Origin: a virus
Lineage: Duplodnaviria; Heunggongvirae; Uroviricota; Caudoviricetes
IMG/VR virus record: IMGVR_UViG_2541047739_000012
Length of the DNA stretch: 41,441 nucleotides
Direction: 5' to 3' (one strand)
Shown here in pieces: positions 1-40,550 of the stretch; positions within the stretch are counted from its first letter, which is position 1; every line of letters begins with the position of its first letter. The position numbers and the translations under genes were made by a program. The notes below the pieces were generated by a model that had not been told where the DNA came from, did no database searches, and was given only the letters and a program-made list of their open reading frames with translations.

Positions 1-585
1 TTACATTGTGTCTGGTTCTTCCGGCCACTCAATATCAGGTGCAGTTGATGTATCAACACGGTTCAGCAACACCCGATACTTCTTCCATGCTGCCAGCAAC
101 GACGCCTCTTCTTCCGTTGCGATCTCCAGATCCACAGCATCCTGAAGCGGCGCTATATGCTCACTGGCTACCTGCATCAGGCTGTTTTTTGTTTCTTCCG
201 CCTCCCGGATCCGGAACAGTTTTTCTGCTTCTGCATCTTTCACCCAGGCTGTGCCGTTCCACTTCTGAAACTCCCCTTCCGGGGATAACCAGGTGACATT
301 TTCCGGTAATGGGCCAAGTTCAGAAATAAATAACGCGTCGCCGGAAGCCACGTCATAGACGGTTTTACCCCGATGGTCTTCAACGAGATGCCACGATGCC
401 TCATCACTGTTGAAAACAGCCACAAAGCCAGCCGGAATATCTGGCGGTGCAATATCGGTACTGTTTGCTGGCAGACCTGTATGAGGCGGAATGTATGCGT
501 CACCTTCACCAATAAATTCATTAGTTCCGGCCAGCAGATTATAAATTGTTATGGTCCGTGGTTGTTCACTCATTCTGAATGCCAT
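1..585 (-). CDS. tfa: tail fiber assembly protein (Tfa)
   Basis: Complete 194-aa ORF (stop at 1-3, ATG at 583-585); start overlaps the upstream stop as TAATG; sequence recalled as lambda Tfa-like; sits directly after the side tail fibre gene. Confidence 0.85.
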
Positions 586-3500
586 TATGCGAGCCTCACA
601 ATGTAGTTAAATGCGATGTTTTTGACGGTGTTTTCCGCGTTACCAGCAGCGTTAACGGTGATGGTGTGTCCATGTGAACCAATCGCAACAGAGTGCGTAT
701 GAGCACCAATACCGACAGTATGCGCGTGTGCACCCGCAGATGCTGCTGTGCCGGACAGTGAGTGTGTATGGTTTCCTTCTGAAGATGATTTACCTACCCA
801 TTGGGAGGTGCCACTGGTTAATGAGCCACTGATACCAACCTGATTAGTCCCGCTAACTTGAGTACTCCCTGCCGGAAACATTCCAGTAGGTTGACTCCCG
901 CTATTCGTTCTGGGCCCAGTCTGACTATGTTGGTGGGCCCCAGCTGAACTTGTAGAGCCGCTCAGACTGTGCGTATGCGCCCCGGTGTTATTCGTGGATT
1001 TAGTGCCGTAATCAAACGACGATGTGGTTTTCGTCCCCAAATCAGTACTGGATGCGCTGGCGCTGTGGGTATGCGATTTAATGCCGTCCTGTTCCTGAGA
1101 CAATACGGCCCGACCACTGGCAGGTTTGCCCTTAATCGTCCAGCCACGCATATCAGGGATCACGCCTGACGGATAAGCGGCTGCAAGTTTCGGGTAAGCA
1201 GATTTGTCAAAAGTCTGCCCCTGCATCAGGGCATAACCAGACGGAACGGTATCTGATGGCCACGGGATTGGTGCGCCAACAGGGTAGCTTTCTGGTGGAA
1301 TATTTTTCGAGGTATAAACTTCTGCCCAGTCTTCCTCAAAACCATAGCCATCTCTTGAAGAACGGTAGAACAGACCACCATTTCTGTAATGCGCCTTCAT
1401 CTGCAGGGTCCGGCAACTTCCGACTCCGGTATAGAAGTTAACCAGAATATAGCTGTCGCCAGAGCGAGTGACATTGTAAGCGCCTGATTCGGCATTCCAG
1501 GGAACGCCACCATCCGCATCGGCATATGTATCCGTTGCCCTTCTGGCAAAAGCAGCCACATGCGCGGCGGTTAAAGTAATATCTTTGGAACCATCAAACT
1601 CAACACCAGAAACCCGTCTTGGCGTTTGCAGCTTTGTTGCTGTTAATGCATTACCGTTCAGACTTGCGGACAGTTTGGTTCCAATAACCAGTTCGCCGGT
1701 TGCGTTATCAATAGCAAACGGTCTTAATGTATTCCAGCCACCATAAACATCACCTTGATTGGTAAGCAGCAGGTAAGTTTTAGCGCCATCATTACGCCAT
1801 AATGCACCATACTCCCCACCTATCATTCGAATCTGATTACCACCACGCGCTACAATTTCGTCTGTGGCAAAAAGTTTTTTGCACGACAAGTTATCGTTAA
1901 CGATTAACGAATGAGACTCATAAAAACCACGCCCACTCTTAAAATCAAGGATAACGTCCGCCGCGATACATTCAGTCGCCGGATTTGTTGCCCCAAACTT
2001 ATAGGTCGTATCATTAACAACGAGATCAGCACCAGGTGCGGATATTGACAGGCCATCTTCGATAAACGCAAAAACAGGGAAAGCAGCGCCATCAACATAG
2101 AACACAGAGCGCAAATCATCACCCTTATTACTCATCATTATTGAGTGGATGGCTCGTTCATTGTTTTGATATTGCCAGAACATTCCATAAGCATAACGCC
2201 CCCTGTCAGTCCAGCCACCAGGCATAACAAATCCGTTAAACTCGCAGTTATTCATCGGATCGCCTGCGGTTCGCGTTGCCGTGGTGATAATGACCCTTGA
2301 TGCCAGTTCGCTTACTGAGCCAGCAGAACGCATAACAACAACAGGGTAATATTTTCCAGATGTTGCACCTGCAGGAGCGTTAACCCGCACATAACGCATA
2401 CCACGCTTATCAGCAAAGTCTGTTTTACTGACCGCGTTAATGTTGTTCAGGAAGCGTCCCTTATCGGGTATATCAGCGCCGTTCTGGTCTTTCTGCAGAC
2501 GTTTATCTGCATTGTCATAGGCTGATTTTACTGCCTTTGGCGTTGCCGCCAGCGTTTCAGACGTACTGTTGGTCGCACTGCTGAGCTGTACTATCCCCTT
2601 TTTCGTCGTACTTGCATCCTCAAGCGCCACGGCGGATGCAATATCCTCTGCCCGTTTAGCTGCTGTCTCGGCGCGCGTTGCCGCGGATTCCGCCGTACTT
2701 TTGCTCTGAGCTGCTGCCGTCGCACTGCCAGCAGCCTCTGTCGCCTTCGTGGATGCCGTCGTGGCGCTGCTCTTCGCTGCTGACGCCTGTCTGGTCGCCT
2801 CATCTTTTGAAGCAGACGCCGATGATGCCGATGACGCCGCCGAACTGGCGGACGATGCGGCAGCCGTTTCTGAGGATTCTGCGCTGGTTTCCGACGCTTT
2901 CGCGTTCGTTTCGGATGTCTTCGCTGCGGAAGCAGACCTCGCTGCTGCGCTGGCCTGTTCAGTGGCTTCGCCAGCCTTCGTTGTGGCTGTTGAAGCAGAC
3001 GATGCGGCACTTTCTGCCGACTTTCCGGCAGCGGTGGCACTGGCTGAGGCCTGCCCGGCACTTGTTGACGCGGCACTGGCAGATGATGCAGCCGCTGTTT
3101 TTGAGCCTGCCGCAGCTGAGGCGCTCTGTCCCGCTGCCGTCTCAGAAGACCTGGCGTTCGTCTCGGACGTTTTTGCCGCCTTCGCGGAATTTGCTGCCGC
3201 CGTTGCCGAGGAAGCTGCGCTACTGGCGCTCGAGAATGCGTTCGTTTCTGATGATTTTGCCGCCTCTTTTGAAGCCGACGCATCCCGGGCTGAGGTGGCA
3301 GCTTCTGACGCTTTCGTAGTCGCGGTGGATGCAGAAGTGGCGGCTGATTGTTGTGACGCTGCAGCATTCGTTTCTGACGTTTTCGCCGCACCGGCACTGG
3401 TAGCTGCCGCGCTTTTTGAGGACTCTGCAGCGGCAGCACTTTTTTCCGCTTCAGTGGCCTTTGTTGATGCCGTTCCTGCGCTGGAAGACGCTGACTGAGC

Positions 3501-27875: not shown

Positions 27876-28931
27876 TCATGCTTTCCACTTCAGGACACCC
27901 GAATTTCTCGCGTGCATTAAAAAACGAATCAGCAACAACAGCTGGCTGCCGTGTTTTTCTTCAAAATCTTTTACCCCGGCGTGCAGTTCGTTATGACATT
28001 TACGGCACAGCGGAATAACAAACAAATCATCAGCCTTTGTTCCCATCCCTCCCAGTCCATGACCAATGATGTGATGCGGATCATCTGCCTGATTGCCACA
28101 CGTCATGCATTTCTGCGTTTTTACCCAACGCGTGTATACAGGCATCTCTTCCCGTTGTGATTTCTGGCGCTGGAGATACTGAGCCGGTGACTCCGGATCA
28201 ACGGCAATGCTGACCACCGTCTTTTCCTGTGGCGGGTTTTGCTGGTGGGCGTGAGGCAGCGGCGCAAGATTTTTTGTGCGCTGCTTCAGTATGCTGGCGG
28301 CGGTCTGCTCTCCCGGTACGATGTCGCTTTCACGGTACATTGAGCGGATTTTTTCCGCACGCAACCCCAGCGAACGACGTAATACCGCTTCCGGTAGCGC
28401 GTCCGCCACCTGATTGCGGACCGCCCACCAGGATAATTCAGCCAGAGATAATTCACGCTCCTGCGTACCGCTTATTGCGTGACCGATGACGTCAATCATC
28501 CATGCTGACAGGTTTTGATGAGCAAGTTGCTCGAGTGATTCGGATGTCTGGTCACGCAGCTGGTTGTCGCAGTGCCAGCACAACACCATTGCGCCGGTAC
28601 CATAACGGTGAATAACGGTTTCGCTGTGATGATAATCGCCGTGTGGCCACTGGCAGGATTTAATATGGCGCAACAGCCAGTCAGACAATGCACCAGCACC
28701 ACCAGCAGCACGAATTACCCGTGCGTTACTGAAAAACGGCAGCAATGTTTTGTCTTCCACCAGCGGCTGGCGAACGGCAGGAACGACCCCGGACGGCAGA
28801 TTACGCATGCTTTTCGGTTCCGGCTCCACCAGTACCCGGGTATTGTGAAATACCGGCATGGATTCACGGCCCGGCTTAACGACCACCAGCCCGAGTTCCG
28901 GTACCAGAACAGGTCGAAGTAATACCCGCAC
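27876..28931 (-). CDS. DUF968-like nin-region protein with C-terminal Cys/His motif
   Basis: 351-aa ORF (GTG at 28929-28931; alternative ATG 24 codons in); C-terminal CMTCGNQADDPHHIIGHG...CRKCHNELH resembles an HNH/zinc-binding module; gene order resembles the Qin prophage quuQ-ydfU block. Confidence 0.55.
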   Translation of the reverse strand: MRVLLRPVLVPELGLVVVKPGRESMPVFHNTRVLVEPEPKSMRNLPSGVVPAVRQPLVEDKTLLPFFSNARVIRAAGGAGALSDWLLRHIKSCQWPHGDYHHSETVIHRYGTGAMVLCWHCDNQLRDQTSESLEQLAHQNLSAWMIDVIGHAISGTQERELSLAELSWWAVRNQVADALPEAVLRRSLGLRAEKIRSMYRESDIVPGEQTAASILKQRTKNLAPLPHAHQQNPPQEKTVVSIAVDPESPAQYLQRQKSQREEMPVYTRWVKTQKCMTCGNQADDPHHIIGHGLGGMGTKADDLFVIPLCRKCHNELHAGVKDFEEKHGSQLLLLIRFLMHARNSGVLKWKA

Positions 28932-28932
28932 G

Positions 28933-29211
28933 TTACCTCCAGATGCGTTGCTGGAATGTGCGAGACGGACGCGGTGGGCGTTCAGAGTAAGGAAGCCTGA
29001 CGGAGATTATCCAGTGACGATAATCGAGGCTGAGGGCTTTCTTAATCTCGTATCCGTGTCTGCGGTAGCACTGAATTAGCCACTCGGCCTGCTCTTCAGT
29101 GCATGGGTCATGCTGGAACCAGTCAGATTTGAAAGTGCGGGAACGCCGCCCGTGCCTGCTGGCAAAGACGGCAGAATCATAAGAATTGTGTAATTTGGTA
29201 TCGTGCGCCAT
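28933..29211 (-). CDS. hypothetical nin-region protein
   Basis: ORF track 28933..29292; ATG at 29209-29211 (MAHDTKLHN...) gives 92 aa; stop abuts the next gene's start. Confidence 0.45.
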   Translation of the reverse strand: MAHDTKLHNSYDSAVFASRHGRRSRTFKSDWFQHDPCTEEQAEWLIQCYRRHGYEIKKALSLDYRHWIISVRLPYSERPPRPSRTFQQRIWR

Positions 29212-29283
29212 CGGTTGTCTCTGCTGGCGCAGCAGGTGCCAGTTGTTCAGGCTGGCGTGCGAATTGTAAACCAGAATGCCAGG

Positions 29284-29309
29284 AAAAAACAAAACCCGCC
29301 GAAGCGGGT
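29284..29309 (-). terminator. intrinsic terminator downstream of the lipoprotein gene
   Basis: Minus strand: stem ACCCGC / GCGGGT with TTCG-type tetraloop, followed by TTTTGTTTTTT. Confidence 0.6.
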
Positions 29310-29507
29310 ATGCTAAAACAAACTGAAAGTAATATACCGGACTTGTAAAGGAACGATAGAATAATTATTGGATTAAACCCTGACTCAATCCAGATTTCAT
29401 AGGCAACAACTACGGACTAATCATCACAGTCATGTTTGATAGGCTTAGTCCGCATTGGGTGAGGGTTTACGGCGTTTTCACTAATAATTTATCGTCCAAG
29501 CTATACA

Positions 29508-29900
29508 CTACTGCCCTGTTTTAACGAAGTTTTTAAAGGAAACAACTGCCTGATAGGGGTTTGGTTGACAGCCAAACATATTATCGCAAAAAGGCTTGAT
29601 GAAAATTCTTGAGGATCCATCTTCATTTGGCATTTTACTCACTTGATAAGCGAGGAATGGACTATTTGGAGAGGGATTATAAGTGGAAATTAGCGTGTCT
29701 GTCGCCGTTTGAATTTTCCATGAGGAATTATTAGCCAACCAGAATTGCGCTCGTTTCCAATAAAAGTCACATTGCTTTTCATCATTACATGTTAGTGGCT
29801 TCATTGCTTCTGCTTTCAACGCTGGATCGACCTTTGCTGCACACCCTCCCAACATTACTGTTGCAATCATTACACCTGCGACTAAAACAAGTTTCTTCAT
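29508..29900 (-). CDS. lipoprotein (moron)
   Basis: 130-aa ORF with signal peptide and lipobox (MKKLVLVAGVMIATVMLGGC), several Cys; strong SD GGGAG; bracketed by terminator-like hairpins and AT-rich intergenic DNA. Confidence 0.7.
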   Translation of the reverse strand: MKKLVLVAGVMIATVMLGGCAAKVDPALKAEAMKPLTCNDEKQCDFYWKRAQFWLANNSSWKIQTATDTLISTYNPSPNSPFLAYQVSKMPNEDGSSRIFIKPFCDNMFGCQPNPYQAVVSFKNFVKTGQ

Positions 29901-30043
29901 CTCCCTGCCCCATCAATAAAAGTTCGGTTCTCTAATAACTAGAGTTAATCAACGGAAAAAACGCCGAAGCGGGTTAAGTGCGGGTGCGTTGAGGATGCCT
30001 GACACATCAGAGGTGGCGAGGGATTTCTCCCCCGCCTGGTCTC

Positions 30044-30199
30044 TTACTCCTCAGGTTCGTAAGCTGTGAAGACAGCGACCTCCGTCTGGCCGGTTCGGAT
30101 TCGTACCTCGCAGAGGTCTTTCCTCGTTACCAGTGCCGTCACTATGACGGTTAAACAGATGACGATCAGGGCGATTAACATCGCCTTTTGCTGCTTCAT
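30044..30199 (-). CDS. hok: Hok/Gef-family type I toxin
   Basis: 51-aa frame MKQQKAMLIALIVICLTVIVTALVTRKDLCEVRIRTGQTEVAVFTAYEPEE; single TM plus the conserved RKDLCEV motif. Confidence 0.85.
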   Translation of the reverse strand: MKQQKAMLIALIVICLTVIVTALVTRKDLCEVRIRTGQTEVAVFTAYEPEE

Positions 30200-30256
30200 A
30201 GCCTGCTTCTCCTTGCCTTTCGGCACGTAAGAGGCTAACCTAGATTTGCCGTTCAT
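30044..30256 (-). CDS. mok: Mok-like leader frame (in-frame N-terminal extension of hok)
   Basis: 70-aa ORF from ATG 30254-30256 encompassing hok in frame, as for chromosomal mok/hok pairs. Confidence 0.55.
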   Translation of the reverse strand: MNGKSRLASYVPKGKEKQAMKQQKAMLIALIVICLTVIVTALVTRKDLCEVRIRTGQTEVAVFTAYEPEE

Positions 30257-30490
30257 AGATTGAGCCTCAGATTAATGTTAAGCGTCTTGCAGGACGCGTA
30301 ATGTTAACTGGGGCTTTTCTCTATCTGCCTTTTGGTGTTCATGCCTGAGACAGATAGCCTCAAGCACCCGCTGCAATTCTACTTAACTCTCCTTTTCCCG
30401 CAAACCGTTTTTATCCCCAGCGGCAAATCGAATACACCACCAGCGCCACAGCCATTGCGATTCCTGCCGTTGTAAATGCCTCAGGCCAGG

Positions 30491-31006
30491 TCATCGTAAA
30501 ACATCCTCCACGCTTATCAGTCCATTTCGTTTCAGGTAATCCATCGCCATCTCCGGTAATTTGCAGTCTGGATTAGCTTTTTTCAGTTGACTGACCAGTC
30601 GTTTAACCCACATTGTTAATTCGCCAACCTGATTACTGGATGCTAGTGGATTGTCGGCTTTACCCAGAATGACAGCACAGCAGGCCTCTTTGAGTACCCA
30701 ATCAACAGCATCTTTCCATGCTCCTGTTTCGACTGGTGGATTCTCACGCTTTACCTGTTCATAAAAGCGCACGGCTTTAACCAGTCCTTCTGATATCACA
30801 GGGACTGGCGGGGTAGTGAATAAGGCCTGAATCTCATAGCCCGGCCTGTCGTTGCACCCCTCTTTTGTCGGTACATATTTCCAGTCACCAACCCACATCT
30901 TCTCCTGAAAGTCCGTAACGCCTTTTTTCACGTAGCGATATCGCCATGCAACTGGTTTTGCCTGCCCTGCCGTTTCATGCCCTTCCTGATAATTAATCTC
31001 GCTCAT
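30491..31006 (-). CDS. hypothetical early protein
   Basis: 171-aa ORF (MSEINYQEG...), ATG overlaps the upstream stop (ATGA); no motif recognised. Confidence 0.55.
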   Translation of the reverse strand: MSEINYQEGHETAGQAKPVAWRYRYVKKGVTDFQEKMWVGDWKYVPTKEGCNDRPGYEIQALFTTPPVPVISEGLVKAVRFYEQVKRENPPVETGAWKDAVDWVLKEACCAVILGKADNPLASSNQVGELTMWVKRLVSQLKKANPDCKLPEMAMDYLKRNGLISVEDVLR

Positions 31007-31179
31007 TCATCGCCCCACTCATCACAATATGCTTCGACCGGAGTTTTTCCTGCTTCGTAGTCATCACGCCAGGCTTCAGCATCAGCAGCACTTCCACCAC
31101 GTAACTCTGCATAGTCCATTAACAGTTCATGCCATTCTTCAAAACTGACGTTGTATTTAGTTGAACCAAAATCAGCCAT
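31003..31179 (-). CDS. small acidic protein (58 aa), not in the ORF track
   Basis: ATG 31177-31179 to TGA 31003-31005, translating MADFGSTKYNVSFEEWHELLMDYAELRGGSAADAEAWRDDYEAGKTPVEAYCDEWGDE; overlaps both neighbours. Confidence 0.5.
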   Translation of the reverse strand: MADFGSTKYNVSFEEWHELLMDYAELRGGSAADAEAWRDDYEAGKTPVEAYCDEWGDE

Positions 31180-31354
31180 TTTGTTCTTCCTCTTCGTCTT
31201 TTATTTCGTGATATGAGTAATTGCAGTAGTTAAAGAAAATTTCTTTTGCTTCGTCATGAATTTCATCAGGTGTTGCGTCATCGTCCACTTCGAATACATC
31301 CTCAAAATCTCCACCAGCTATTCCCGTTTCAATAATTATTTTGAACTTTCGCAT
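31172..31354 (-). CDS. small acidic protein (60 aa)
   Basis: ATG 31352-31354 with SD AGGGTGG; sequence rich in Asp/Glu (DFEDVFEVDDDATPDEIHDEAKE...KDEEEEQNG). Confidence 0.5.
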   Translation of the reverse strand: MRKFKIIIETGIAGGDFEDVFEVDDDATPDEIHDEAKEIFFNYCNYSYHEIKDEEEEQNG

Positions 31355-31447
31355 TTCACTACCACCCTTTCGGGTGGCCTCCTGCTGTTCTGAGGGTGCA
31401 GAAATCCCTCCGGTTAAGGATTAAATTTTTAACAGTGCTAAATTTAA

Positions 31448-31804
31448 TTATTCAGTTCTGGATTTTGTCACCCTGCGTATCCGTGCTTTCGCATTACGCT
31501 CAATCTGAATTAGCTTTTCTATATTTTTTCGCCTTTCCTGTTCCTCCTGGCGCAATAGTTTTACATCATCTGCCAGTCTGGTTTCTCTTTTCGCCACAGA
31601 GAGCATCCAGTCAAATGGCTCCACAACTGCACCGCAGATTTTACAGCGGACCTGACGCTCTTTTTCGTCAACCCGGACAGAAGCGTGATGGCAGTATGGT
31701 CTTTCCGATGGCTCATAAAGAAAATTAACCTGATTACGTGGGTCATCCTCTTTTACCGGAAATAAAACAATATTACTTAACTCATCTTCTGGTTTTATTT
31801 CCAT
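31448..31804 (-). CDS. hypothetical protein with Cys/His zinc-ribbon-like motif
   Basis: ORF track 31448..31861 (GTG); ATG at 31802-31804 (MEIKPEDEL...) has a strong SD AAGGAGAGGAG; motif CHH...CKICG. Confidence 0.5.
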   Translation of the reverse strand: MEIKPEDELSNIVLFPVKEDDPRNQVNFLYEPSERPYCHHASVRVDEKERQVRCKICGAVVEPFDWMLSVAKRETRLADDVKLLRQEEQERRKNIEKLIQIERNAKARIRRVTKSRTE

Positions 31805-31861
31805 GCTCCTCTCCTTTGATGCGAATGCCAGCGGCAATTGAAGCCTGATAGCTAATTTCAC

Positions 31862-32284
31862 TTACAGTACCGCCTCCTGAAAATTACCCTGATAGAAAGC
31901 CAGTACACGCTGCATAGCTTCGCTCTTCCGGCACTCGCGACAGATTATATTCAGGCGCCTGTCGTAGCGGCGTATTTCTCCGTCTGGTAATGACCAGATA
32001 AGGTCCGGATCAACCGCAGATGGTTTCTTCGGCTTTGCCCTTGAGAGCTTTTTACGGGCATTTTGCCAGTCCTTACGCGCCTGTTCAGACGGGAATAACC
32101 CGTAACCAGAGTTGTATACATCGCCACTGGCAACCAGCTCTCTGGCCAGAACGCTCATCAGATATCTTGTTGCCCCAGTTTTAGTTTCCAGTTGTCGTAA
32201 CGTCTCGCGCCCACTCTGGCGTACGAGTTCAACAACCTGCCCTTTAATTTTTTCCCGCTCTTCTTGTGTAAAAACTTTTGCCAC
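31862..32284 (-). CDS. hypothetical early protein downstream of the replication gene
   Basis: 140-aa ORF with GTG start preceded by AGGAGGG; basic, with CRECRK near the C-terminus. Confidence 0.5.
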   Translation of the reverse strand: MAKVFTQEEREKIKGQVVELVRQSGRETLRQLETKTGATRYLMSVLARELVASGDVYNSGYGLFPSEQARKDWQNARKKLSRAKPKKPSAVDPDLIWSLPDGEIRRYDRRLNIICRECRKSEAMQRVLAFYQGNFQEAVL

Positions 32285-32324: not shown

Positions 32325-33395
32325 TTACCCCCTGAAGCCCGGCGGAATTTCGTTATCCGGTTCAGAAATATGATTCACACAACGCTGGTTGTTCGTGCCG
32401 CTTACCGGGAGCAACCAGGGGTTCTCAAAATTCCGGTCCGGTCCAAAAAACGTCGTCGCTCGCTGAACAAATTCCGTTCCCGTTTTCCCGGTAGCCGCCA
32501 AGTATCTTGCGTAACGCCTCACGCCATCCAGCATGGCCTCTGGTGGCACCCCCTCGCGTAATCTGGCCTTCCAGGCACTGAAAGCGGATTTCTTCGGGTT
32601 TGCTCCGGCACGCAACGGGTACTCCCGCCAGACCTGTTCGAACACATCCGGATAATCCACTCGTCCCACAGACTGCCCGGTGCTTTCCGGGACTACCCGA
32701 TCGGCTTCCCGCTGAATGGCGGAATCGGCTTCAGGCTGCTGCAGTTGGTGTGATTGCTCCGGCCTTGCGGTCATCACCTGCTGCACAGCGCCCGAATCGG
32801 CTTTCAGCGCATACGCTGAATCGGCTTCCGGTGTCGTGCCTGCTGGCTGACCAGGATTGACGGTCTGAACATCCCCTGCCTGGTTCGTGGCGTTTTTTAC
32901 GCCATGGACCATAGTGTTTTGATCTTCTTGATCTGTATCTTTATCTGTATCTTTATCTGTCGTGACTCGTCGTGACATGTGCGTGACATTTCGTGACGCG
33001 CCGTGACAATCGCCATTTTGTTCCCGCTTTCTTTCCCTCTCTCGCTGCGCCCTCTTGCGCTCTGCAGGAGATTTTGCGGTTTGCGAAATATTGCCGTTGT
33101 CCTCTTTAAGCACCTGGCGTTTTTCCCATCCAGTGATTAAATCACCATCAAGTACCCGCCCCTGCATCGTCTGCAAAATTGAATCAATTACCTCTTCTGT
33201 CACGTCGAGCGCACTTGCCAAATCTTCTGTCGTGACATCAATGTGACCTCGCGTGACATTTCGTGACGCGCTCACCAGGAGGTGGATATACACTGCCATC
33301 ACTGTTGCAATTGGCTGCCCTGACACCCTGGCAATTGTTCGCCACTTAGGGTCATTTGGCATGTCATGCCATAATCTGAGCCAGGCGTTAGCCAT
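32325..33395 (-). CDS. replication initiation protein (O-like) with origin iterons inside the gene
   Basis: ORF track 32325..33401; ATG at 33393-33395 (MANAWLRLWHDMPNDPKWRTIARVSG...) with SD AGAGGTGAG; contains two iteron clusters in its coding sequence; sits in the lambda O position after the CII-like gene. Confidence 0.6.
   Translation of the reverse strand: MANAWLRLWHDMPNDPKWRTIARVSGQPIATVMAVYIHLLVSASRNVTRGHIDVTTEDLASALDVTEEVIDSILQTMQGRVLDGDLITGWEKRQVLKEDNGNISQTAKSPAERKRAQRERERKREQNGDCHGASRNVTHMSRRVTTDKDTDKDTDQEDQNTMVHGVKNATNQAGDVQTVNPGQPAGTTPEADSAYALKADSGAVQQVMTARPEQSHQLQQPEADSAIQREADRVVPESTGQSVGRVDYPDVFEQVWREYPLRAGANPKKSAFSAWKARLREGVPPEAMLDGVRRYARYLAATGKTGTEFVQRATTFFGPDRNFENPWLLPVSGTNNQRCVNHISEPDNEIPPGFRG
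32921..33007. repeat. origin-like repeats: AT-rich tandem repeat plus five ~10-bp-spaced CGTGAC iterons
   Basis: atctgtatcttt repeated 2.5 times (32931-32960), then CGTGAC at 32961, 32971, 32982, 32992 and 33002 (spacing 10-11 bp). Confidence 0.65.
33229..33270. repeat. second iteron cluster (GTGAC repeats)
   Basis: CGTGAC/TGTGAC at 33231, 33243, 33252 and 33262; the 20-mer gcgtgacatttcgtgacgcg is repeated exactly from the first cluster (32981-33000 and 33251-33270). Confidence 0.65.
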
Positions 33396-33466
33396 ACTCA
33401 CCTCTTTTGATACCGAATCTTTTTACTCACAAATTGCCGGAAGTGATCCGGTATGAATATTGCGAG

Positions 33467-33892
33467 TCAATGCACAGCCACAATATTTCCTGCAGGGCCA
33501 CCACGATTCATCTGGTTGAAACCAGCGATCGCCACTGCGACAAAATCATCAGCGTCTCTCACCAGTCGTTCCCGCGTCTCCACTAGTTCCCGAAAATAGG
33601 CTGAGCTATGACTGCGCATTCGGGCCACCAGCAGAGGTGGCATTGCTTTTTCGATAGCTGGTAACAACGCCTGAATTTTTTTAACCGCATCAGGGGTGTC
33701 TTTCTCCACCCAGCGGAAAATTTTCTGAGTATTGCGAGCCAGGGCTTCCGGATGGCTGTCGTCATACAGTTCCGGGAACGTCATTCCCAGCTCGAAATAC
33801 GCTTTGGTAATTTTCGCAGCCGGTACTTTTTCGCCGTCCGGATGCGCCCAGGCATTCATCGCCATGCGGATATGTTCATGTTTGATTTTCAT
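33467..33892 (-). CDS. CII-like early regulator (YdaT-like)
   Basis: 141-aa ORF MKIKHEHIRMAMNAW..., ATG overlaps the cro-like stop (ATGA); recalled resemblance to Rac YdaT; occupies the cII position. Confidence 0.5.
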   Translation of the reverse strand: MKIKHEHIRMAMNAWAHPDGEKVPAAKITKAYFELGMTFPELYDDSHPEALARNTQKIFRWVEKDTPDAVKKIQALLPAIEKAMPPLLVARMRSHSSAYFRELVETRERLVRDADDFVAVAIAGFNQMNRGGPAGNIVAVH

Positions 33893-34116
33893 GAATCACT
33901 CTTCCTTTTGTCCCGGGTGGTATCCTTCTTTTTGTAAAGCTCTGGGTTCAAAGATAATTTTCCCTTGGAGTATGCAGCAGCTTCCGCAGCTCTCCCTTTC
34001 GGAACTATTTCACCGGGGCGCTTACGCCACATGTAAATAGCTTCGCGGGTTATCCCATAAAAATCAGCGACCCTCTGAACAGAGCCAAAAAACTGAACAA
34101 GTTCATCAACTCGCAT
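33889..34116 (-). CDS. cro: Cro-like HTH repressor (YdaS-like)
   Basis: 75-aa ORF with helix-turn-helix (FYGITREAIYMWRKR), ATG 34114-34116 with SD AGGAGAG; divergent from the cI-like gene. Confidence 0.65.
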   Translation of the reverse strand: MRVDELVQFFGSVQRVADFYGITREAIYMWRKRPGEIVPKGRAAEAAAYSKGKLSLNPELYKKKDTTRDKRKSDS

Positions 34117-34212: not shown

Positions 34213-34860
34213 ATGATGGAAAGCCTTGGCATCAGGCTTAAGAAACTCAGAAAAGATAAGGGACTCACCCAAGTAGAACTGGGTAAGCTTTCAGGCGTGA
34301 CTGGGGTTACTATAGGGTACTGGGAGAAAGATCTAAACGAACCCGGCAGCAAAGCTCTAAGTAAGTTAGCCCAGGCATTAGGAACTACTGAGTCCTATCT
34401 CCTGTATGGAGTATCGTCTCCTGAACTATCTTTTGTGCAGAGCAATCCAGGCACCAAGATCCCCTACTTTTCGTGGGGTGACGCGATTTCTTTCCTAATC
34501 TTAGAAGGAGAGAAAACAATGGGAAATGTCGATAGGATCACCACATTCTTTGATGTAGTGGAAGGTGATTTTGCCGTTTCAATGCCTGATGACACTATGC
34601 ATAACCCCTCAGGGTCACCAAGTATCCCGGTTGGTGCCACTGTGATCCTAAGACCAGGAGAGAGTTATAAAAATGGCAGTATCGTCGCTGTAATAGTTCC
34701 AGATCCACTTACAAATGAACCGTCTATGACTATAAAAAAATTAGTTATTGATGGAAAACTTGTGTATTTAAGCCCTCTCAATCCGCGCTATCAATCATCC
34801 TTGCTTACGCCAGAGTGTAAAATTGTTGCCGTAGCAAAAGGTGTGCAGTTCAACCTATAA
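34213..34860 (+). CDS. cI: CI-like repressor (N-terminal HTH, C-terminal S24 LexA-like peptidase domain)
   Basis: 215-aa ORF; HTH (LTQVELGKLSGVTGVTIGYWE) and a C-terminal region with S24-type features; divergent from cro across the operator region. Confidence 0.75.
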   Translation: MMESLGIRLKKLRKDKGLTQVELGKLSGVTGVTIGYWEKDLNEPGSKALSKLAQALGTTESYLLYGVSSPELSFVQSNPGTKIPYFSWGDAISFLILEGEKTMGNVDRITTFFDVVEGDFAVSMPDDTMHNPSGSPSIPVGATVILRPGESYKNGSIVAVIVPDPLTNEPSMTIKKLVIDGKLVYLSPLNPRYQSSLLTPECKIVAVAKGVQFNL

Positions 34861-35671: not shown

Positions 35672-36224
35672 TAGCTAACCAACGAAGCTAAGAGTTCTCC
35701 ACGGGTGAGGTGGAGTGCGTGCGCCGGACACGGGTGAGCATCCGGCACTGACAGTTTACTGAAAGGATATTTCCATGAAAAGTCAGACCATAACGCGAAA
35801 GCGCACGGCGAGGTAGCTGGTTCATAGATAGCCTGTCGTTAAATTTTCGTCGACCGTGCGCTTCCGGTTGTGGCACTCCGCGAAATGGCGCGGCGGTAAG
35901 TATGGCGGGGTTATTCCTTCCCCGTTGAGGACACCGGGTTGTCAGGTTGACCATACGCTTAAGTGACAACCCCGCTGCAACGCCCTCTGTTATCAATTTT
36001 CTGGTGACGTTTGGCGGTATCAGTTTTACTCCGTGACTGCTCTGCCGCCCTTTTTAAAGTGAATTTTGTGATGCGGTGAATGCGGCTAAGCGCACGCGGA
36101 ACAGTTAAAACCAAAAACAGTGTTATGGGTGGATTCTCTGTATCCGGCGTTAATTGTTAACTGGTTAACGTCACCTGGAGGCACCAGGCACCGCATCACA
36201 AAACTCATTGTTGAGGGCGCGATA

Positions 36225-40460: not shown

Positions 40461-40550
40461 TGGCGGAGAGAGGGGGATTTGAACCCCCGGTGGAGTTGCC
40501 CCCACTCCGGTTTTCGAGACCGGTCCGTTCAGCCGCTCCGGCATCTCTCC
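40461..40550 (-). tRNA. serU: tRNA-Ser (anticodon CGA), host gene serving as prophage attachment site
   Basis: 90-nt minus-strand cloverleaf with long variable arm: acceptor GGAGAGA, anticodon arm CCGGT-CTCGAAA-ACCGG, T-loop TTCAAAT, CCA; its 3' end faces the integrase 53 bp away. Confidence 0.85.

Follow-up and report, generated by a model that had tools for sequence, protein, structure and literature searches.

The locus that we describe here raises the question of why a short DNA word should recur at intervals of about one helical turn, in two separate places, inside a single protein-coding gene of a prophage. We addressed this question in a 41,441-nucleotide stretch of DNA from a virus of the Caudoviricetes (IMG/VR record IMGVR_UViG_2541047739_000012; hereafter the window, numbered from its first base). 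Our preferred answer, to which we assign a probability of about 0.8, is that a lambdoid prophage starts theta-type replication in this region, from an origin embedded in the gene for its own initiator. The observations that lead to this reading are the repeats themselves, a layout maintained across the family, repeat cores that change in concert, selection acting at the level of the DNA, a maximum of AT content at the expected place, and a geometry shared with the origins of phages SPP1 and lambda.

The repeats fall, as an earlier note on this DNA had stated, within the coding sequence of a replication initiator ('phage replisome organizer', PHROG 3729), a minus-strand gene at 32325..33401 that was read as 358 amino acids from a GTG at 33401. 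Since homologues begin with MANAW, translation probably starts instead at the ATG at 33395. The product matches the 'replication initiation protein' family phrog_3729 with an E value of 2e-257 and belongs to a 90%-identity cluster of more than 5000 E. coli sequences that bears the NCBI name 'phage replisome organizer'; no Pfam family was found for it at normal thresholds. The setting is the early-right operon of a lambdoid prophage, in which a cI-like repressor (34213-34860, plus strand), cro (33889-34116, minus strand) and a YdaT/cII-like gene (33467-33892, minus strand) precede the initiator, and a DUF977/Ren-like gene and a gene for a Zn-ribbon protein follow it. The initiator occupies the slot that gene O holds in lambda, after the cI-like, cro and YdaT/cII-like genes.

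On the plus strand, direct reading and a pattern search both place CGTGAC at 32961, 32971, 32982, 32992 and 33002, with spacings of 10, 11, 10 and 10 bp, so that the five helically spaced copies that the earlier note had reported for 32961-33007 are all exact. The second cluster is less regular, with CGTGAC at 33231, 33252 and 33262 and the one-base variant TGTGAC at 33242; the four copies previously counted at 33231-33267 keep their helical spacing (11, 10 and 10 bp), three of them being exact, and they make four only when the 5-mer GTGAC is taken as the core. An exact repeat is shared by both clusters, as had been claimed, and its length is 21 rather than 20 nucleotides (GCGTGACATTTCGTGACGCGC, at 32981-33001 and 33251-33271). 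The AT-rich 12-bp tandem noted beside the first cluster is also present, as three copies of TCTTTATCTGTA at 32926-32961. Counting both strands, CGTGAC occurs 24 times in the 41-kb window, and nine of these occurrences lie inside 32961-33267. A scan of the whole window for phased chains of any hexamer (at least three copies, 9-12 bp apart) returned two chains only, the fivefold CGTGAC and the neighbouring 12-bp tandem, and 200 dinucleotide-preserving shuffles yielded a mean of 0.045 chains of at least three copies and none of four or more.

Because the initiator gene lies on the minus strand, its coding strand shows the core as GTCACG, the orientation used below. Iteron cluster A (33231..33267) consists of three GTCACG and one GTCACA at spacings of 10, 10 and 11 bp and codes for a variable loop on the protein surface, at residues 45-57, and iteron cluster B (32961..33007) consists of five exact GTCACG at spacings of 10, 10, 11 and 10 bp and codes for residues 132-147, where a disordered inter-domain linker begins. 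About 30 bp past cluster A in the direction of the gene, a lone inverted core (GTCACG on the plus strand, 33199..33204) is also present in several homologues; because it overlaps the conserved codons for LDVTE, any DNA-level selection on this copy is inseparable from coding constraint.

The predicted structure of the protein shows how these positions relate to its domains. In the full-length model the linker at residues 130-250 has a pLDDT below 50, and the loop at residues 45-57 has the lowest pLDDT inside the N-terminal domain. A Foldseek search with the full-length model gave no significant match, because some 60% of the protein is disordered; when the search was repeated with a model of the N-terminal domain alone, the domain was classed as a winged helix whose nearest relatives are the DnaD N-terminal domain and the RepA_N initiators, with weak matches to phage replisome organisers. 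This winged-helix domain (33027..33395, minus strand, approximately residues 3-125) is the presumed iteron-binding module. Its residues 7-125 align with positions 1-119 of the 121 in PF09681 (Phage_rep_org_N) at 16.5 bits, below the gathering threshold of 23.3, and two PHROG 'replisome organizer' families are matched at E values of 5e-6 and 2e-4; the RepA_N family PF06970 gave no match in the initiator. Homology to lambda O was ruled out, as PF04492 is not found at E<=10 and hhalign against lambda O returns a probability of 0.2. Judged by its predicted fold, the initiator is a winged-helix protein of the DnaD-NTD/replisome-organizer type and not an O homologue, and the term 'O-like' in the earlier note is apt for the position and presumed role of the gene and inapt for its descent.

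In an alignment of 12 full-length homologues, of 100-45% identity, the two stretches that the repeats encode (residues 45-57 and 130-147) are hot spots of indels and variability in an otherwise strongly conserved N-terminal half, and peptide words recur between the two stretches of any one homologue. We examined 50 loci at the DNA level, comprising 13 first genes, extending to 34% amino acid identity, and 37 others. The divergent DNA came from eight homologues and from four phages found by tblastn (Aeromonas pAEv1818, Pseudomonas phi1, an uncultured phage and Ralstonia Hennie), and the 37 added N-domain loci were drawn from a one-genome-per-species set of Gamma-, Beta- and Alphaproteobacteria together with MAGs; a family-alignment scan of viral contigs recovered only copies that are 99-100% identical. 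Two clusters of a short word, with 10-11-bp spacing and at the same gene positions, are present in all 13 first genes and, under a strict scan, in about 30 of the 37 further loci, most of the others fitting the 5-mer criterion. Two clusters with an A-rich tract are the layout of about 45 of the 50 homologues across the Proteobacteria, in the order cluster A, approximately 210-250 bp, cluster B, the AT-richest and purine-biased tract of the gene and, often, a palindrome. Measured from the W codon of WLRLWHD, cluster A lies at approximately +116 to +170 and cluster B at approximately +375 to +470 nt, and the cluster A site from +116 to +147 is filled in 30 GTCAC-type homologues. The flanking DNA, about 92 kb in total, contains a single chance chain. 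Clear repeats were absent from three MAG loci from AT-rich hosts and from a Microcystis phage.

The word itself differs between lineages: GTCAC(G) is the core in 30 genes, (G)TAACG(C) in about nine, CGAACG(C) in about six, GCAACG in one and CTACG in two. Copy number also differs between homologues, and any one gene always uses the same core word in its two clusters. We looked for residues of the protein that vary together with the core, and none turned up outside the iteron-coded loop.

Adjoining cluster B is an A-rich, purine-biased tract of low complexity (32916..32960, minus strand), a candidate DNA-unwinding element, whose coding strand is made up of GATAAAGATACA repeats that specify the peptide DKDTDKDTDQED. 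The AT content of these 45 nucleotides is 71%, compared with 46% for the gene, and purines make up 73% of their coding strand; of 1032 gene windows of equal length, just 2 are richer in AT. For 12 of 13 genes, the 45-nt window with the highest AT content in the gene starts no more than 10 nt from where cluster B stops, and a purine-biased, A-rich tract of 40-50 nt comes right after cluster B in every homologue, the Ralstonia phage included, built on GATAAAGATACA, GATAAA or AGAAGAG; cluster A has no adjoining AT-rich tract. Past the tract, on the side opposite the iterons, lies an inverted repeat of 13 pairs with an A/T6 loop (32881..32911). The form TGGCG-A5-7-CGCCA is kept in enterobacterial homologues, and in the Salmonella homologue the inner stem differs, codes for other residues and is still self-complementary. 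A terminator scan had given a terminator-like match at 32881-32911, which we reread as a probable origin-flanking palindrome. GC skew in the window mirrors gene orientation and is uninformative about the origin, an Rfam scan of the region found no RNA family, and a promoter scan of the region gave promoter-like sites at a level not above chance.

The relation between the repeats and the reading frame bears on whether the DNA or the peptide is being maintained. Since neither 10 nor 11 bp is a whole number of codons, the core is read in all three frames, giving CH, SR and VT in the window. Between the window and GTCACG-type homologues from Yersinia, Aeromonas, Pseudomonas and metagenomes, third-codon-position identity at conserved residues is 0.42-0.45, and these same homologues carry 5-9 exact cores in the same two places. 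Lineages with the GTAACG core never place it in the frame that reads TAA and mostly alternate the other two frames by means of the 10/11-bp spacing, which shows that the coding accommodates a DNA word that is retained. At a much closer range, 78 of 80 near-identical E. coli and Shigella loci have 4+5 copies, and all SNPs within the clusters of these 80 loci are in spacers. The peptide encoded by the repeats is the most variable part of the N-terminal half, and the length of the cluster A loop ranges across the homologues from about 13 to 35 residues; both clusters sit where the protein tolerates variation. These comparisons indicate that the repeats are under selection at the level of the DNA and not of the peptide.

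The N-terminal domain and its repeats are found joined to several different C-terminal halves. The N-domain with GTCACG clusters is joined to a genuine DnaT DNA-binding domain of three helices (PF17948) in proteins of O157-type E. coli and in Aeromonas phage pAEv1818. Pseudomonas phi1 combines the N-domain and clusters with an unrelated C-terminal half, followed by a gene for a 609-aa 'P'/helicase; Ralstonia Hennie combines them with another C-terminal half, followed by dnaB; and in Yersinia they are combined with a tail-less C-terminal half, followed by a lambda-P-like gene. The reciprocal combination is found in the initiator of Shigella Stx phage 75/02, which has the C-terminal half of the window protein (65% identity from residue 160) and an unrelated N-terminal half. 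At the equivalent places this gene has a different repeat, AAGGGGCT, present twice at gene nt 185 and 196 and, in inverse orientation, twice at 441 and 452. A distance of 256 bp separates the two pairs, a purine-rich (GAACAG)n run comes after them, and this repeat count was reached in only 5 of 1000 codon shuffles. On this evidence the N-domain plus repeats behaves as a cassette, and the repeats track the N-domain and not the C-terminal domain or the neighbouring genes, which is the classical argument for the N-domain as the reader of the iterons.

The C-terminal end of the window protein resembles a host replication protein. Its last 24 residues (GTNNQRCVNHISEPDNEIPPGFRG, residues 335-358, codons 32328..32399 on the minus strand) are identical at 15 of 24 positions to the C-terminal tail of E. 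coli DnaT, with the motif SEPDNxIPPGFRG. The likeness was detected by phmmer against the PDB, where DnaT entries 6aep, 2ru8 and 9zbt are matched with E values of 0.003-0.07 (0.003 for 6aep), and by the NCBIfam DnaT model, whose positions 156-179 are matched by the tail. PF17948 is absent from the window protein. A profile of the family searched against PDB sequences does not retrieve DnaT, since the tail is conserved only among close relatives and its match is lost from the profile. Across the relatives and the window protein, the DnaT-like modules range from the full ssDNA-binding domain, in some relatives, to the tail only, in the window protein. No helicase or loader gene was found between the initiator and Q (27140-27508), the genes in this interval being DUF977, the Zn-ribbon protein, hok/sok, NinG-like and RusA; in most relatives the initiator is adjoined by an IstB/DnaC-like, P-like or DnaB gene. 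The C-terminal domain of DnaT docks on PriA and assembles on ssDNA into filaments, marking a site for helicase loading (PMC13377028). The DnaT-like tail is a possible link to the helicase-loading or primosome machinery of the host, and we hypothesize that host DnaB-DnaC or the restart primosome could be recruited by mimicry of DnaT. More specifically, the family might initiate replication with no helicase or loader of its own: an iteron-bound winged-helix array would set DnaT-like modules beside the A-rich tract and so offer the origin as a substrate to the host restart primosome or DnaB-DnaC, a mimicry of DnaT at a sequence-specific origin, with one of the clusters coded in a surface loop of its presumed reader. 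We offer this fuller scheme tentatively and consider it less likely than not.

By the general description of an iteron-type theta origin, the region has at least three phased direct repeats, an adjoining AT-rich element and an initiator gene in cis. The likeness to the lambda origin begins with the gene slot after cro and cII and extends to the order of elements, in which an AT-rich, purine-biased tract comes after the iterons and an inverted repeat after the tract. The lambda iterons occupy gene nt 349-433 with the AT maximum at 434, and cluster B occupies nt 395-441 with the AT maximum at about 445. In both genes the iterons code for an inter-domain linker, and in both the N-terminal half is paired with the iterons and the C-terminal half with a helicase-loading partner. 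The two differ in that lambda has four sites of approximately 18-19 bp spaced 20-24 bp apart, whereas the window gene has nine direct cores of 6-7 bp, spaced 10-11 bp apart in two clusters, and in that lambda has a P gene and the window has none. The reading in the earlier note of origin iterons in a 'lambda-style arrangement' is supported, with mid-gene repeats followed by an AT-rich tract, and needs correcting on the size and spacing of the iterons and on homology to O.

The oriL of Bacillus phage SPP1 also lies within the gene for its own replisome organizer (gene 38, G38P). The protein gp38 binds the direct repeats in gene 38, the AT-rich region is the unwinding element, and a plasmid carrying oriL replicates in vitro with gp38, gp39 and gp40 (PMC6316719). 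In the scan that we applied to the window gene, the gene 38 repeats, GAAA[C/A]GACA, lie at nt 361-405 with spacings of 10-12 bp and the AT maximum at nt 412, so that in both genes short direct repeats about one helical turn apart lead directly into the AT-richest tract of the gene. The window protein is called a replisome organizer or initiator by PGAP and PHROG, and its N-domain matches the Pfam family of the SPP1 organizer, PF09681, below threshold and collinearly over the full length of the model. G38P itself has no significant sequence homology to the window protein (hhalign probability 0.25), and its gene contains a single cluster, the second origin (oriR) lying at another place in SPP1, where the window gene has two clusters approximately 260 bp apart. 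SPP1 also encodes the loader G39P and the helicase G40P, neither of which is encoded in the window, and the hosts considered here are Proteobacteria.

A third comparison is offered by the RepA_N plasmids. In the Rep protein of pSK41, an N-terminal winged helix binds Rep boxes at the centre of its own rep gene, the central region coded by the origin serves as a linker that can be dispensed with, and partner specificity lies in the C-terminal domain (PMC5703833). The resemblance to the window protein lies in a winged-helix N-terminal domain structurally near the DnaD N-terminal domain, in origin DNA that codes for a linker (here cluster B and the A-rich tract, residues 132-162) and in C-terminal domains that are swapped between relatives. 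The boxes of RepA_N plasmids, longer and semi-palindromic, surround an A-tract (PMC7145576), unlike the direct 6-7-bp cores at 10-11-bp spacing in the window gene, and the window protein lacks PF06970; a second cluster inside the N-domain coding region, such as the window gene has, is not described for RepA_N. DnaT, finally, resembles the initiator in the motif of its C-terminal tail and differs from it in lacking sequence specificity and iterons.

These features suggest a sequence of events at the putative origin. We infer that the N-domain is the reader of the iterons, and we likewise infer that melting occurs in the A-rich tract, what part cluster A plays and how DnaB is brought in. Upon derepression, the initiator would be made from the rightward early transcript, and monomers would bind the GTCACG cores through their N-terminal winged helices. 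Because the cores are one helical turn apart and point in the same direction, the bound monomers would line one face of the DNA, over the five sites of cluster B and the four sites of cluster A approximately 260 bp upstream. This nucleoprotein array, possibly with a loop between A and B, may then destabilise the adjoining 45-bp A-rich tract, after which the C-terminal module would recruit the helicase-loading machinery of the host.

Other functions could be assigned to the same repeats. The clusters, or cluster A alone, might be initiator sites for autoregulation or copy control, acting by titration, handcuffing, looping or a roadblock within the gene's own transcript, with unwinding taking place elsewhere. 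Iteron plasmids commonly use extra iterons for control, lambda and SPP1 gene 38 do without two separate clusters, and cluster A has no AT-rich tract next to it, all of which speaks for such a role; yet for 12 of 13 genes the AT maximum comes directly after cluster B, frequently with a palindrome beyond it, in the canonical order of an origin, and the window has no other phased repeat cluster. As an account of the whole region we consider control sites unlikely. A narrower form, in which cluster A is a control element and cluster B, the A-rich tract and the palindrome are the origin proper, is compatible with our reading and is a live alternative for the role of cluster A.

We give still less weight to the possibility that the sites serve another protein of the phage or host, such as the YdaT/cII-like protein, DUF977 or a host factor, in a non-replicative role such as transcription control. 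YdaT-like and HTH proteins do flank the gene in enterobacterial loci, but the neighbours vary, the phages of Pseudomonas, Ralstonia and spring water keep both clusters without YdaT or DUF977, and the sole constant partner of the repeats is the N-domain that contains them; promoter-like sites at chance level and the lack of an Rfam match also speak against this role, which we regard as very improbable. Least credible of all is that a repetitive, low-complexity peptide, or slippage during replication, gave rise to the repeats as a by-product and that they have no function as DNA. The DKDTDKDTD tract flanking them is a codon-phased 12-bp tandem and would suit such a source, as would the variation in copy number, but the iteron spacings do not follow the codon, the hexamer is read in three ways, the cores are exact despite saturated synonymous sites, the peptide is the least conserved part of the domain and the GTAACG copies avoid their stop frame. 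The use of all frames, the saturation of synonymous sites and the confinement of SNPs to spacers together rule out, in our judgement, an artefact of peptide repetition or slippage. We accordingly keep to the reading of the region as a probable replication origin within its initiator gene, and consider below what this would mean.

The module is widespread. Of 5,426 complete E. coli genomes, 2,036 (38%) carry it, as do phages and prophages from Aeromonas, Pseudomonas, Ralstonia, Bordetella and further genera, and current annotations call the protein only 'replisome organizer', 'O', 'primosomal protein I' or 'hypothetical'. In the literature that we searched we found no description of an origin for this initiator family, full-text searches for the motif and the origin gave unrelated papers, and papers on the 'Eru' replication region of Stx phages do not treat this initiator and its origin. 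An origin inside an initiator gene is a known principle, established for lambda, SPP1 and the RepA_N plasmids; this widespread family of them is apparently undescribed.

The comparative data define a candidate origin for the family, with its core words, copy numbers, candidate unwinding element and palindrome, and they present GTCACG, GTAACG, CGAACG and GCAACG as putative natural variants of specificity. They also make the locus a clean case of one stretch of nucleotides carrying both a DNA signal and a protein sequence. In combination with the missing loader gene, the DnaT-like C-terminus suggests a testable route by which the host helicase may be recruited, one that would bear on the induction of these prophages, including relatives among the Stx phages that share the C-terminal module.

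Directly beyond the A-rich tract that forms the candidate unwinding element of the probable origin, window 32881-32911 holds an inverted repeat of 13 pairs with an A/T6 loop, at a position analogous to that of the inverted repeat in the lambda ori. The palindrome is kept among enterobacterial homologues of the initiator, and in the Salmonella homologue the inner stem is different yet compensated. Among homologues of the initiator's N-terminal domain, those from Serratia (L134) and Pantoea (L140) lack cluster A and carry a different core, CTACG, in one cluster at about +313 to +356, counted in nucleotides from the W codon of the conserved WLRLWHD motif. Three from AT-rich MAGs (L125, L127 and L132) retain the (GATAAA)n tract with just 1-2 core copies. 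Such loci may represent decayed or differently organised origins. The initiator ORF of Pseudomonas phage phi1 (KT887557; about 2501-3400 of locus L092) contains two GTCACG clusters, and it is wholly unannotated in the GenBank record, which leaves this stretch empty, with two 'hypothetical protein' genes on one side of it and 'replication protein P' on the other.

A second repeat lies in the minus-strand initiator gene at window 32700-32831 (gene nt 575-705), within the region encoding the disordered linker, where four GAATCGGCTTC-type words at spacings of 24/72/24 nt share a single reading frame throughout and encode the peptide PEADSA/EADS. Their sequence differs from the iteron core, words of this type are also present in the 75/02 Stx initiator of a Shigella phage, and the homologue P0005 is without exactly the stretch between two of the copies. 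Rather than an iteron, it appears to be either a motif at the peptide level or a direct repeat prone to recombination. The initiator ends in 24 residues (…SEPDNEIPPGFRG; window 32328-32399) that match the host's DnaT over its C-terminal tail (PDB 6aep, 2ru8, 9zbt; E 0.003); some relatives sharing the N-domain have a full DnaT DNA-binding domain (PF17948) instead. We found no helicase or helicase-loader gene after the initiator in window 27140-32284, which encodes DUF977, a Zn-ribbon protein, hok/sok, a DUF968/NinG-like protein, RusA and Q. In most relatives, the gene directly 3' of the initiator codes for an IstB/DnaC-like, lambda-P-like or DnaB protein.

Rfam matches reaching the gathering score placed IS009 RNA at window 44-242, a four-tRNA cluster upstream of the lysis genes at 24953-25259, the hok/sok toxin-antitoxin at 30044-30369, the DicF sRNA at 35999-36050 and a further single tRNA near the right end at 40464-40550, which may be the prophage integration target.

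In four homologues whose iteron core reads GTAACG (L083, L084, L085 and L090), the core never occurs in the frame in which its TAA would be a stop codon; its copies occupy the two remaining frames only, mostly alternating between them through the 10/11-bp spacing. Such frame avoidance is a visible compromise between a DNA signal and the coding sequence that contains it.
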